From an uncultured Gammaproteobacteria bacterium (GTDB lineage Bacteria; Pseudomonadota; Gammaproteobacteria; Steroidobacterales; Rariloculaceae): DNA of 64,000 bases. The DNA is taken from contig CAVUKQ010000014.1 in NCBI GenBank assembly GCA_963742115.1, forward strand, positions 517,850 through 581,849, written 5' to 3'. Shown piece after piece: positions 46,997 through 51,886 of this stretch; the first letter of the stretch is position 1; every line of letters starts with the position of its first letter. The position numbers and the translations under genes are program-made. The notes under the pieces are model-generated. The model was not told where the DNA came from, did not search any database, and saw nothing but the letters and a program-made list of their open reading frames with translations.

Positions 46997-49900
46997 TCAG
47001 CGCCGCAGCCATACACGTAGCAGCGACAAAAGGTGCTCGCTGTCGACCGGCTTCGCGATGTAGTCCGAGGCACCCGCTTCGAGGCACTTCTCGCGGTCGC
47101 CCTTCATCGCCTTCGCGGTGAGCGTGATGATCGGCAGGAGCTGGAACTGCGACTTGCCGCGGATCCGGCGCATCGTCTCGTAGCCGTCCATCTCGGGCAT
47201 CATGATGTCGAGCAGCACCAGCGATATATCCGGTGTCTGCTCGAGCAGCCGAATCGCGTCGAGGCCCGTGTGCGCGGCGATCACCTTCATGTTGTAGCGT
47301 TCGAGCACGCTCGACAGCGCGAAGATGTTGCGAACGTCGTCGTCGACCACGAGGATCTTCTTGTCCGCCAACACGGCGTCGCCCTCCTGCAGCGACAGCA
47401 CCATCTGGAGCTTCGCCTCTGGCAGGCGCGACACGTCGCGATGCAGGAACAGCGAAGTCTCGTCGAGCAACCGCTCGCGCGAATGCGCGAGCGTCACGAC
47501 ACTGTGCCGCGTCGTGGCGCGCAGCCGCTGCTGATCTTCCTCGCTGAAGTGATTCTCGGCATAGACGACGAACGGCACGAAGGCGCGGTCTTGCACGTCG
47601 CGCGCGCGCTCGATCAGATCGAGCGCGTCCATGTCGGGTAGCTCGAACGCGAGCACGACGCAGTCGAAGTCGTGCTCGGCCAGCAGCCCGAGCGCGGCCG
47701 CGCCACTCGAGGCCGAGGCGAGCTCCACGTCGTCGCCGGCCACGAGTGCGGTCATGCCCCCGTCCGCTCCCCCGGTCGGGTCCACGACCAGCAGCCGGCG
47801 CTTGCGGTTACTCAGGAACGTGCGCACATCCTCGAAGGCTTTGTCGAGCTGATCCGCGCCGAGCGGCTTCGTGAGATAGGAATACGCGCCGCGCGACAGC
47901 GCCGGCAGCGGGTCGTCCTCGCCCGTGAGGATCTGCACCGGCGCGTGCCGCGTCAGCGGATCCTGCTTCAACTGACCGAGCACGGCCCAACCGAGCATGT
48001 CGGGTAGGTTGATGTCGAGGCAGACGGCGTGTGGCCGGTATTTGCGGGCGAGCACGAGCGCGTCAGCGCCGCGCGACGCGGCGAGGCACCGGAAGCCGCG
48101 CCGCCGCGCGACGTCGACGAGGATCCGCGCGTAGTCCGGATCGTCCTCGGCGATCAGCATTACGCAGTCGCCCGGCGAGAGATTCGCACGGTCGTCCGGG
48201 ATCGGCCGCGCCGCGGGCGCCGCCGCGGATGTCAGCGCCGCGATCCGGGCCGGAGCCTCGCGCGGCTCGAGCTCGGGCAGCACGGTCGCACCGGCGTAGG
48301 TGACGGGGAGGTACAAGGTGAATGTGCTGCCGCGCCCCGGCATGCTCTGGAGCTTGATCTCGCCGCCGAGCAATTGCGCGAGCTCGCGGCTGATCGCGAG
48401 GCCTAGCCCGGTGCCGCCGTGGCGGCGCGCGGTACCCGCGTCCGCCTGCTGGAACGCCTCGAACACGATCTTCTGTTTGTCGAGCGCGATGCCGATGCCG
48501 GTGTCGCTCACGGCGAACGAAACAACCGTGTCGGCGTTGTCGAGCACGGCTTGACCGGGTGTCCAGCCGCTCTCTGCAACGCCGACACGCAACGCCACGC
48601 CGCCGTGCTCCGTGAACTTGAACGCGTTCGCGAGCAGGTTCTTGAGCACCTGCAGCAGACGCTTCGGATCCGTGTTGATTCTCTCCGGCAGCTCCGTGCC
48701 GAACTCGATCGCGAAATCGAGATCGCCGCTCTCCGTCTCGTGCCGGAAGTTGCGCTGCACCGCGTCGCTCAAGTCCGCGAACGGCAGGTCTTCGCACTGG
48801 ACAGTGACGGTACCGGATTCGATCTTGGACAGATCCAAGATGTCGTTGATGAGGTTGAGTAGGTCCGTGCCCGCGCCGTGGATCGTCGTCGCGAACTCCA
48901 CCTGACGATGAGTGAGGTTGCTGTCCACGTTGTCCGCGAGCTGCTGGCCGAGCACGAGAATGCTGTTGAGCGGCGTGCGCAGCTCGTGCGACATGTTCGC
49001 GAGGAATTCGGACTTGTACCGCGAGGTGAGCGCGAGCTCGGCGGCTTTCTCCTCGACCGCGCGGCGTGCCTGCTCGATCTCGGTGTTCTTGCGCTCGACC
49101 TCCGCGTTCTGCGCGGCGAGCAGCCGGGCCTTCTGTGCGAGCTCCTCGTTGGTCTTCTGCAGCTCGTGCTGCTGGCTCTGCTGCTCCAACGCGAGCTGCT
49201 GCGTCTGCTCGAGCAACAGCTCGGTGCGCATCGTGACCTCGATGTTGTTGAGCACGATGCCGACGATGTCGGTGAGCTGCTCGAGCAGTGCGATATGCTG
49301 CGCGGTGAACTCGCGGAGGCTCGCGAGCTCGATCACCGCCTTCACCGCTCCTTCGAACAGCACCGGAAGGACAATCACGGTGCGCGGCTCGATGTCGATC
49401 AACCCCGACGCGACCCGCAACGAGCGCGGCGGCAGGTCCGAGAGCACGAGCCGGCGGCGCTCGTACGCGCACTGCCCAATCAACCCCTCGTTGAACGCGT
49501 ACTCGCGCGGATCGTTGGAGCTCGCCGAATCGGCGTACGCCGCGAGCTGCTTCAGCCGCGGGCCGCGCTCGGTGTCGGCCATCACGTAAGCGACGCCTTG
49601 GTGCGCCGAGACGAGCGGCGCGAGCTCGGACAGCAGCATCTGCGCGACGGCTGTGAGGTCCCGTTGGCCTTGCAGCATACGGCTGAACTTCGCGAGATTG
49701 GTCTTGAGCCAGTCTTGCTCCGTGTTGCGATCGGTCGTCTCGCGAAGGTTGCCGATCATCGCGTTCAGGTAGTTCTTGAGATCCGCGACCTCGCCCTTCG
49801 CGTCGACTTGGATGTAGCGCGTGAGGTCGCCCTTCGTCACCGCGGTCGCGACGTCCGCGATGGCTCGCACCTGGGTCGTCAGGTTCGCGGCGAGCAGGTT

Positions 49901-51886
49901 CACGTTGGCCGTGAGATCCTTCCACGTGCCCGCGGCGCCCGGCACGTTCGCCTGGCCGCCGAGTCGGCCTTCGACGCCGACCTCGCGAGCGACGGTGGTC
50001 ACCTGGGCCGCGAACGTCGCAAGCGTGTCGGTCATGCCGTTGATCGTGTCCGCGAGCGCGGCCACCTCGCCTTTCGCTTCGAAGGTCAGCTTCTGCGCGA
50101 GGTCGCCGTTCGCGACCGCGGTTACGACCTTGACGATGCCGCGCACCTGGCTCGTGAGGTTCGCCGCCATGACGTTCACGTTGTCCGTGAGATCCTTCCA
50201 CGTGCCCGCCACGCCCGGCACGAGCGCCTGGCCGCCGAGCTCGCCTTCGGTTCCCACCTCGCGCGCGACGCGCGTGACTTCCGCCGCGAACGAGTTGAGC
50301 TGGTCGACGACGGTGTTGATCGTGTTCTTGAGGTCGAGAATCTCGCCTTTGACGTCGACCGTGATCTTGCGCGACAAGTCGCCGCGCGCGATGGCCGTGG
50401 TGACTTCCGCGATGTTGCGCACCTGCGTGGTCAGGTTCTCGGCCATCACGTTCACGTTGTCCGTGAGGTCCTTCCAGGTGCCCGCGACGCCCGGCACGAG
50501 CGCTTGGCCGCCGAGCTCGCCTTCGGTGCCCACCTCGCGCGCGACGCGCGTGACCTCCGACGCGAACGAGTTGAGCTGATCCACCATCGTGTTGACGGTG
50601 TTCTTGAGCTCCAGGATCTCGCCCTTCACGTCCACCGTGATCTTCGACGACAAGTCGCCGCGCGCGACGGCCGTCGCGACGTCGGCGATGTTGCGAACCT
50701 GCGCCGTGAGGTTGCCGGCCATCGAGTTCACGTTGTCGGTGAGGTTCTTCCACGTGCCTGCGACGCCCGGCACGATGGCCTGCCCGCCGAGCTTGCCCTC
50801 GGTGCCGACCTCGCGTGCTACGCGCGTCACCTCCGAGGCGAACGAATTGAGCTGGTCGACCATCGTATTGATGGTGCTCTTGAGCTCGAGGATCTCGCCC
50901 TTGACGTCGACCGTGATCTTGCGCGACAAGTCGCCGCGCGCGATCGCGGTCGCGACCTCTGCGATACCTCTCACCTGGCTCGTGAGGTTCGCGGCCATGA
51001 CGTTCACGTTGTCCGTGAGGTCTTTCCAGGTGCCCGCGACGCCCGGCACGATGGCCTGACCGCCGAGCTTCCCTTCGGTGCCGACCTCGCGCGCGACCCG
51101 TGTCACTTCCGACGCGAACGACCGGAGCTGGTCGACCATCGTGTTGATGGCTTCCTTCAGCTGCAGAATCTCGCCGCGCACGTCGACCGTGATCTTGCGC
51201 GACAGGTCGCCGTTCGCGACCGCGATCGTGACCTCGGCGATGTTGCGCACTTGCGCCGTCAAATTACCGGCCATCGAATTCACGCTATCGGTGAGCGTGC
51301 GCCAGGCTCCGGAGACATCCTCCACGACTGCCTGGCCGCCGAGCATGCCCTCCGTGCCGACCTCGCGCGCGACGCGCGTGACCTCGGACGTGAACACGTT
51401 CATCTGATCGATCATCCGATTCACGATCCGCGCGGACCGAAGGAACTCCCCCTCGAGCGGCCGTCCCTCGATCTCGAGCGGCACCGTCTGCGACAGGTCG
51501 CCTTTGGCGACCGCCGCGATGCTGCGCGTGACCTCGATCGTGGGCTGGAGCAAGTCGTCGATCAGCCCGTTGACGGACGTTTCCATCGCGCCCCAAGCGC
51601 CGGACCGGCGCTCGCACTGCACGCGCTGGCGCGTGAGGCCGCGCTTGCCGACGGCATCGCCCACGCGCTCGAGCTCGGTCGCGAGCCGTTCTTTCGCGGA
51701 GACGATGTCGTTGAAGGTGTCCGCGATCTTGCCCGCGATGCCGCTGCGGTCGCCCGCGAGCCTCACGGAGAAATCGCCGTTGCGGACCGCCATCAGCGCC
51801 CGCAGCAGCTCGCTCGAGTCGACCTCGGTGTCGCCTCGCGGCTGGCCGAAGGCCGCCCCGAGGACGCTTGGGCTCACGGTTTCCAT
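46997..51886 (-). CDS. soluble poly-HAMP / GAF / HisKA / HATPase_c hybrid histidine kinase with three C-terminal receiver-like domains (1629 aa)
   Basis: The 4.9-kb ORF is intact and has no predicted N-terminal TM segment. It has about 14 HAMP-like segments including six 92-aa units, a GAF-like region, a long coiled coil, H-box [12 protein letters not shown] boxes DTGIGI and GTGLGLAI, then REC ([10 protein letters not shown]), a pseudo-REC ([11 protein letters not shown], acceptor Asp replaced) and REC ([12 protein letters not shown]). Confidence 0.9.
49727..51382 (-). repeat. six tandem 276-bp coding repeats (92-aa di-HAMP units) inside the kinase gene
   Basis: The units start [12 protein letters not shown](K/E/M)LGGQA.. 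at aa 169, 261, 353, 445, 537 and 629. Units 2-4 (50279..51106) are visibly the most alike at both protein and DNA level, differing mainly at synonymous positions. Confidence 0.85.

Follow-up and report, generated by a model that had tools for sequence, protein, structure and literature searches.

The window analyzed here, a stretch of 64,000 nucleotides of contig CAVUKQ010000014.1 from an uncultured gammaproteobacterium, harbors on its minus strand a complete gene for a poly-HAMP hybrid histidine kinase (positions 46997..51886), as deduced from translation of the open reading frame (ORF), Pfam matches, and the phase of the G+C content at third codon positions (GC3). Taken as a whole, the protein very probably belongs to the kinase-type poly-HAMP hybrid histidine kinase family represented by AskA and AskB of Myxococcus xanthus. 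An earlier note on this DNA, made from the sequence alone, had implied that a bacterial kinase of the fungal type would be new. The family, the askB-askC two-kinase pair, and the structure of the HAMP array are already in the literature, and the locus is a further member of the family rather than a new system.

Domain composition and family assignment

The list of ORFs and the translation revealed 1629 residues plus a stop codon without interruption, and the minus-strand frame is backed by GC3 phase over positions 47551-51930. The ORF cannot extend upstream because it starts at the first start codon following a stop codon. Its homology to relatives runs from end to end. An antisense ORF of 1007 residues (48878..51901, plus strand) overlaps the repeat region; GC3 phase does not support its coding. 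High G+C content commonly gives rise to such ORFs. All coordinates given below for the poly-HAMP gene refer to the minus strand. The N-terminal tail (residues 1-24, 51815..51886) is poorly conserved (17-29% identity to homologues) and is not hydrophobic. Kyte-Doolittle windows of 19 residues exceeded 1.46 only at residues 834-839, inside the GAF domain; no membrane segment or N-terminal hydrophobic stretch was detected, and no transmembrane or periplasmic input domain was found upstream from the array in the whole ORF. The uninterrupted 4.9-kb ORF and the solubility of its product, both put forward in the earlier note, were therefore retained. Pfam annotation also agreed with the proposed HAMP, GAF, HisKA, HATPase_c, and triple receiver (REC) assignments, since the matches to HAMP, HAMP_2, GAF_2, HisKA, HATPase_c, and Response_reg (three matches) were all above the curated cut-offs.

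The N-terminal 720 residues consist of 15 chained HAMP domains, an initial canonical domain followed by seven pairs comprising a non-canonical and a canonical domain. Pfam HAMP matched six stretches (E-value of 9e-61) and HAMP_2 matched seven (2e-56), whilst Tandem Repeats Finder reported a period of 276 bp with 5.7 copies (score of 1653). The motif VT[RT]VAREVG is present at residues 169, 261, 353, 445, 537, and 629, with a spacing of exactly 92 residues. This spacing places six head-to-tail di-HAMP units of 276 bp, or 92 residues, at 49727..51382 (residues 169-720, HAMP4 to HAMP15), each composed of a non-canonical and a canonical domain, as the earlier note had located them. A hidden Markov model (HMM) built from the six units detected a seventh, divergent unit at residues 74-168 (E-value of 2e-11) and a weak half-unit match, limited to the canonical half, at residues 31-69. 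Residues 1-168 therefore contain three HAMP domains, rather than the two HAMP-like segments first described, and the array contains 15 in total.

HAMP1, the canonical array-initial domain, spans approximately residues 25-73 (51668..51814), with approximate boundaries obtained by alignment to the first HAMP of PDB entry 9trk and from the weak HMM match. Its designation as a D1-type HAMP is based on homology to AskA and not on the cluster map of Coles et al. (2026). The divergent module at residues 74-168 (51383..51667), delineated by the unit HMM, comprises HAMP2, which is non-canonical and contains Trp98, and the canonical HAMP3; it is 56% identical to AskA. A Trp residue is present in each of the seven non-canonical HAMPs, at positions 98, 195, 287, 379, 471, 563, and 655. 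Sub-threshold Pfam matches to ApoLp-III, GatB_Yqey, HTH_6, and DUF1759 overlap the HAMP helices and were dismissed as helical-repeat noise.

The array is followed by a GAF domain (residues 741-879, 49250..49666), matched by GAF_2 with an E-value of 2e-16 (60.9 bits for a cut-off of 28.6) and by GAF with an E-value of 7.6e-10. Between the GAF and DHp domains lies a Gln/Glu-rich helical linker (approximately residues 880-950, 49037..49249, boundaries approximate), which was read from the sequence and is 74-92% identical to homologues; it corresponds to the long coiled coil that had been noticed at this position. Pfam located the HisKA/DHp domain at residues 958-1025 (48812..49015), with the phospho-acceptor His967 in the H-box SHELRTPLN, and the HATPase_c catalytic (CA) domain at residues 1072-1196 (48299..48673; E-value of 1.2e-25). 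With His967 in its H-box and with N, G1, and G2 boxes, the DHp/CA core is catalytically complete at the level of motifs. Two of the three receivers are canonical. REC1 (approximately residues 1256-1372, 47771..48121, boundaries approximate), identified by the Response_reg match and a residue check, has Asp1291 as the acceptor. REC3 (residues 1509-1625, 47012..47362; best Pfam stretch at 1511-1623) has Asp1560.

A search of PDB sequences retrieved two entries annotated as 'histidine kinase, Gcn4p', 9trk and 9trj, with E-values of 3e-113 and 3e-64, respectively. The alignment of residues 20-302 with 9trk is gapless over 283 residues, with 67% identity. These entries are constructs of M. xanthus AskA containing six and four HAMPs, respectively (Coles et al., 2026; PMC13446029). 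The latter study defined two independent classes of poly-HAMP arrays. In the kinase class, modules combining a non-canonical type C and a canonical type D HAMP, with D1 always first, are located upstream from GAF, DHp, and CA domains and one or more receivers, and arrays of bacterial, fungal, and amoebozoan kinases belong to this single class of HAMP types C and D (PMC13446029). The protein encoded in the window displays the features of the kinase class, namely solubility, 92-residue spacing of the di-HAMPs, a canonical first HAMP, Trp in the non-canonical HAMPs, the order GAF-DHp-CA-REC, and homology to AskA.

AskA (MXAN_0712), AskB (MXAN_6735), and Amb07 of Sorangium cellulosum have been termed group-III-like hybrid kinases, and genetic evidence showed that they control development and the way cells respond to ambruticin and glycerol (Marcos-Torres et al., 2020; PMC7643160). 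They are likewise soluble, start with a canonical HAMP followed by modules of non-canonical and canonical HAMPs, and end with GAF-DHp-CA and three receivers. The interface Trp is conserved in every non-canonical HAMP of the protein studied here. The AskB array is longer, with 31 reported HAMPs versus 15, and the middle receiver, in contrast to those of AskA, AskB, and Amb07, is a pseudo-receiver in the gammaproteobacterial clade to which the protein belongs.

The family is large. Two protein searches returned at least 8000 homologues, with full-length identities of 64-66%, and a scan of species-representative genomes identified at least 597 confirmed relatives. Among the matches listed, these originate from Acidobacteriota, Verrucomicrobiota, Planctomycetota, Nitrospirota, Cyanobacteria, Bacillota, Bacteroidota, Gemmatimonadota, and all major proteobacterial classes. 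An exact-sequence look-up of the protein returned no record. The closest relatives are metagenome fragments with 92% and 80% identity, followed by metagenome-assembled genomes of Gammaproteobacteria with 73% identity. A GTDB scan with the C-terminal half of the protein detected no relative with more than 63% identity among the matches listed.

Fungal group III kinases (Nik1, Os-1, TcsC, Bos1, and Hik1) are likewise cytoplasmic and devoid of a transmembrane segment. As in the protein studied here, their HAMP pairs of about 92 residues, of the same C/D type, are located upstream from HisKA-HATPase_c-REC, and mutations of the HAMP-junction Gly and of the core alter their output. Fungal enzymes contain five to seven HAMPs or pairs and one receiver but lack a GAF domain, and feed the Ypd1/Ssk1 and HOG MAP-kinase pathway. 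In contrast, the protein of the window is bacterial and has a GAF domain, three receivers, and a paired second kinase. Its gene lies in a bacterial context (prfB-lysS, sdhCDA, and ygfZ), and this context, together with the GAF domain and the three receivers, sets it apart from fungal group III. It is homologous to the fungal kinases and is predicted to work like them, yet is not a member of their group. The proposal of a bacterial cytoplasmic counterpart of these kinases, made in the earlier note, agrees with both published studies (PMC7643160; PMC13446029). Phenylpyrroles are reported to act on fungal group III kinases indirectly, via triosephosphate isomerase and methylglyoxal (PMC6433957).

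Canonical and non-canonical HAMPs also alternate in the poly-HAMP arrays of chemoreceptors and in multi-HAMP proteins such as Aer2 (with the di-HAMP of FrzCD), where the junctions are tight and their glycines conserved, and the structure of HAMP1-3 of Aer2 displays the same zig-zag conformational pattern. However, these arrays are composed of HAMP types A and B, evolved independently (PMC13446029), have Phe at the interface in place of the Trp found here, and are connected to a methyl-accepting output domain rather than to a kinase. The five HAMPs of Aer2 are dissimilar and broken up by a haem-PAS domain. No Pfam match to MCPsignal or PAS was found in the poly-HAMP kinase. The NCBIfam model of Aer2 scored 164 bits for a cut-off of 1200 and matched HAMP stretches only.

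Conservation of the di-HAMP units

The di-HAMP units are old paralogues maintained by purifying selection. The central units share 85-89% identity at the protein level and 84-85% at the DNA level, so that the earlier description of the central three units as nearly identical in protein was overstated. For units 2 to 4, the method of Nei and Gojobori gave synonymous divergence (dS) values of 0.57-0.59 and non-synonymous divergence (dN) values of 0.07-0.09, with dN/dS ratios of 0.11-0.16. Codons specifying the same amino acid differed between central units in 30-33% of the cases, versus 43% expected at saturation if codons were drawn independently from the codon usage of the gene itself (GC3 = 0.90). 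Synonymous sites have thus covered approximately 70-75% of the distance to saturation. The DNA identity and the frequency of synonymous codon differences led us to reject recent slippage and gene conversion between the units.

The units also have a positional identity. A metagenomic relative, P0122, whose N-terminus is cut by the end of the contig, contains the same six units, each 96-99% identical to the unit of the same rank, whilst its GAF-to-REC3 half is 80% identical. In comparison with proteins from Steroidobacteraceae, Terriglobus, and Verrucomicrobia, positional orthology holds for the first and the last two units, at 84-90% identity, and only the number of central units differs. Loci with a full-length gene contain 6 to 14 VAREVG units, the most frequent number being 11, which was counted in 25 sampled loci (among L006-L080), an array length preference that extends across phyla. 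The low dN/dS ratios, the near-saturation of synonymous sites, and the positional orthology support the view, already expressed in the earlier note on account of synonymous divergence and protein conservation, that selection has acted on each unit.

Identities were calculated per region between the protein and five homologues (P0122, a Steroidobacteraceae protein, and proteins from Sulfurifustis, Terriglobus, and Verrucomicrobia). The di-HAMP units were 84-99% identical, except for a single value of 63% obtained with a partial protein, and the DHp domain was 81-91% identical. The ranges for the other regions were 69-89% for REC3, 56-93% for GAF, 59-81% for CA, 50-72% for REC1, and 34-55% for REC2, the least conserved region. 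The HAMP array therefore outranks the catalytic core in conservation, which argues that it is more than a spacer.

The latter argument bears on the possibility that the GAF domain is the only sensor and that the poly-HAMP rod is a passive spacer or dimerization scaffold, whose length only sets geometry. The GAF domain has the classic fold of small-molecule sensors, directly precedes the kinase core, and is labelled 'sensory GAF domain' by Coles et al. (PMC13446029). The variation in the number of central units, from 6 to 14 among full-length members, is also expected if units are interchangeable. However, identity across phyla is 84-90% for the array versus 56-67% for the GAF domain, and the positional orthology of the units with those of P0122 is retained in a protein whose C-terminal half has diverged to 80% identity. 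The similarity of the GAF region to PDB sequences, including those of solved ligand-binding GAF domains, is marginal, with a best E-value of 0.013 for a PDE GAF domain. In addition, fungal group III kinases signal without a GAF domain, and HAMP deletions change their output (PMC3848655). We therefore consider it unlikely that the GAF domain is the sole sensor.

Pseudo-receiver, partner kinase, and genomic context

The middle receiver, REC2, extends over approximately residues 1380-1495 (47402..47749, boundaries approximate). Its degeneration, with replacement of the acceptor Asp by Ala, had been noticed in the sequence, and inspection of alignment columns over 222 homologues extended this observation to three further conserved residues. 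The acceptor is Asp in 213 homologues and Ala1413 in the protein studied here. The second acidic residue of strand beta1 (Asp in 211 homologues) is replaced by Pro, the conserved hydroxyl residue (Thr in 210) by Ala, and the conserved basic residue (Lys in 210) by Thr. In this alignment, the acceptor Asp is otherwise missing only in the nine nearest relatives (P0121-P0128 and P0130). The pseudo-receiver is therefore specific, among these homologues, to the protein and its nine closest relatives, and its clade-specific degeneration appears to be the one feature, albeit a minor one, that lies outside the published descriptions of the family (PMC7643160; PMC13446029).

A second kinase gene is located directly downstream from the poly-HAMP gene on the same strand. 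The partner ORF (45405..47087) most likely starts at the ATG at position 46982, 14 nt past the stop codon of the poly-HAMP gene, as deduced from the protein encoded by locus L081, a 92%-identical metagenome contig. The intact part of the partner, identified with Pfam, has the organization REC-HisKA-HATPase_c (45705..46982, minus strand). Its C-terminal receiver (45259..45655, minus strand) is spread over two further frames, as established from ORF translations, tblastn frames, and alignment with L081. One of the two frameshifts is located in the linker following HATPase_c, and the other, within the receiver, results from the insertion of 1 nt. The orthologue in L081 (L081:3631-5343), with 84% nucleotide identity, encodes an intact 570-residue REC-HisKA-HATPase-REC protein. 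The partner is 54% identical to the downstream gene of locus L001.

Of the 78 related loci with sufficient flanking sequence, 60 have a gene for a protein with a homologous N-terminal receiver whose start lies no more than 400 nt downstream on the same strand. The median identity of the receivers is 59%, and the median distance between the stop codon and the receiver match is 40 nt. The ten partners that were scanned with Pfam all have the organization REC-(PAS)-HisKA/HisKA_3/HWE_HK, with or without a C-terminal receiver; HATPase_c was matched in six of them and in none of the four partners of the HWE_HK type. The 18 loci lacking a receiver-first partner mostly belong to the most distant members of the family, such as those from Nostoc, Massilia, and Paenibacillus. 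In M. xanthus, the hybrid kinase gene askC is located immediately downstream from askB, and Rec3 of AskA binds the AskC receiver in a two-hybrid assay (Marcos-Torres et al., 2020; PMC7643160). The askB-askC pair parallels that of the window in gene order.

A more elaborate reading combines the evidence on the array and on REC2. In this gammaproteobacterial clade, each of the 15 HAMPs may have a position-specific role, for example in partner docking or in graded sensing of a physical cytoplasmic cue, instead of being an interchangeable spacer, and the pathway may have been rewired, with the pseudo-REC2 serving the co-transcribed receiver-first kinase as a domain for regulation or docking. This reading is suggested by the 96-99% identity of the units with those of P0122 despite 80% identity of the kinase half, by the 85-90% identity of the terminal units across phyla, by the dN/dS ratios of 0.11-0.16 among central units, and by the clade-specific loss of all catalytic residues of REC2 with retention of the fold. 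We regard this combination as possible but rather doubtful.

The gene pair is flanked upstream by prfB and lysS and downstream by ygfZ, a DUF1674 gene, and sdhCDA. The same order was found in L081 (sdhC/D, a 297-aa ORF, the partner kinase, and the poly-HAMP kinase). The 297-aa ORF, for which no Pfam match is on record, occupies the place of ygfZ in the window, a correspondence by position only. The order prfB then lysS is that of the E. coli operon, and prfB, encoding release factor 2, contains the canonical programmed +1 frameshift site CTTTGAC at 54806..54812 (minus strand), a natural break. Other frame breaks, within 12667..14047 and 14047..15000 (plus strand), affect cydA, encoding cytochrome bd subunit I, which is split into two ORFs near position 13400 (Pfam profile positions 1-228 and 248-418), and cydB, which is split near 14670 (Pfam profile positions 1-212 and 207-283). 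The kdsA gene (DAHP_synth_1 family) is frameshifted near 60960 (ORFs 59145..61358 and 60428..61228, minus strand); the 130 N-terminal residues of its product run in frame into the enolase (eno) ORF, and its C-terminal half is in another frame.

The essential nature of kdsA, cydA, and cydB and the integrity of the neighboring kinase in the 92%-identical relative suggest that the frame breaks of the window are assembly indels rather than signs of decay. The intactness of the poly-HAMP gene, which the earlier note had singled out against neighbors with frame breaks, was accordingly not retained as an indication of special selection: the breaks look like assembly indels, the one in prfB is programmed, and, with at least five breaks in the approximately 20 kb inspected, a clean ORF of 4.9 kb is not improbable.

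The same breaks raise the question of whether the locus is decaying or mis-assembled, in which case the number of units, the pseudo-receiver, or the ORF itself could be artefactual. Frameshifts are indeed present in the partner, in its C-terminal receiver, as well as in cydA, cydB, and kdsA; assemblies tend to collapse repeats, and many homologues in databases are partial. Nevertheless, the same six units, each 96-99% identical, are present in the independent metagenomic relative P0122, and the substitutions in the pseudo-receiver are common to nine independent relatives, one of which (P0121) is identical over a 13-residue stretch. Moreover, units that are 84-85% identical in DNA are too diverged for easy collapse, and the ORF is continuous and homologous over its entire length. 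An artefactual origin of these features is therefore highly improbable.

Upstream from the poly-HAMP gene, a near-consensus match to a sigma-54 -24/-12 element, TGGCATGGCCGTTGCA, is present in matching orientation at 52098..52113 (minus strand), 212 nt from the start codon. It is the single match in the 64-kb window, for 0.04 expected, and no equivalent exact match was found upstream from the poly-HAMP gene in the other loci. We consider this element as a candidate that provides a lead on the regulation of the gene. In the upstream region, no regulatory RNA was matched in Rfam at E-values up to 0.1, the scan for sigma-70 promoters found none, and terminator-like sites were at chance level.

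Signalling model and meaning for the family

The AskA structures and the gearbox model of Coles et al. (2026) suggest that the protein forms a parallel homodimer, whose stacked HAMPs would build a single uninterrupted four-helix rod. The two HAMP types, canonical and non-canonical, would rotate their helices in opposite senses, so that each di-HAMP would pass on a signal of the same sign. Via the linker, a conformational change starting in the GAF domain or at any point of the rod would reach DHp and there switch the enzyme between kinase and phosphatase states. By reference to the interaction of AskA Rec3 with the AskC receiver and to the conserved gene pair, the output may consist of phosphotransfer to REC1 or REC3 and, via REC3, to the N-terminal receiver of the downstream kinase in a two-kinase cascade. 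By analogy with the proposal made for fungal group III kinases, we favor a model in which the array, as the most conserved part of the protein, is itself the sensor and responds to a cytoplasmic cue of a physical or general kind, such as osmolarity, crowding, or partner binding. The GAF domain would then provide a second, ligand-type input.

Several observations weigh against this model. The M. xanthus Ask kinases were reported to bind DNA, MrpC, and FruA, and this work showed no phosphotransfer route, which makes the phosphorelay step an assumption. Neither gene of the pair encodes an HPt domain, so that transfer from receiver to receiver would require a separate HPt protein, or phosphate would be transferred directly from DHp to the receiver of the partner. 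Rewiring or decay of the pathway in this organism could also account for the degeneration of REC2 and for the frameshifted C-terminal receiver of the partner. The biological roles of the family are also described as largely uncharacterized in the structural study (PMC13446029).

The first of these observations is the starting point of a different explanation, according to which the protein would act on DNA or transcription factors mainly as a scaffold rather than as an enzyme, kinase chemistry being secondary. AskA and AskB bind the mrpC promoter (PmrpC), MrpC, and FruA in vitro, and weak, partial matches to HTH_6 (RpiR-type, PF01418) were found over the HAMPs (E-value of 1e-4, below the curated cut-off). 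These matches, however, do not reach the cut-off, and the residues that they cover are part of HAMP helices in the crystal structure. The H-box, the N, G1, and G2 boxes, and the two canonical receivers are intact, and DHp is 81-91% identical across phyla, which points to selection on catalysis. We know of no gammaproteobacterial counterpart of MrpC and FruA, two regulators of myxobacterial development, although none was searched for; this also counts against a scaffold. Fruiting-body development would not be expected in the uncultured gammaproteobacterial host, and the biology of ambruticin, MrpC, and FruA is therefore unlikely to carry over. A mainly scaffolding role thus appears improbable, and signalling by the array through the kinase core remains our preferred model.

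The action of fludioxonil and iprodione is mediated by fungal group III kinases, whose bacterial relatives are the poly-HAMP kinases. Since the family, the structure, and the paired kinase have already been published, the locus gives no new approach to what these enzymes sense, a question that is no more tractable here than in Myxococcus, which is cultured and genetically tractable. Its contribution is comparative. Across phyla, no part of the protein is better conserved than the HAMP array, which surpasses the GAF and catalytic domains; positional orthology across phyla holds for the first and the last two units, the central units alone varying in number; about three quarters of the sampled related loci retain a receiver-first kinase immediately downstream; and one gammaproteobacterial clade has turned REC2 into a pseudo-receiver.

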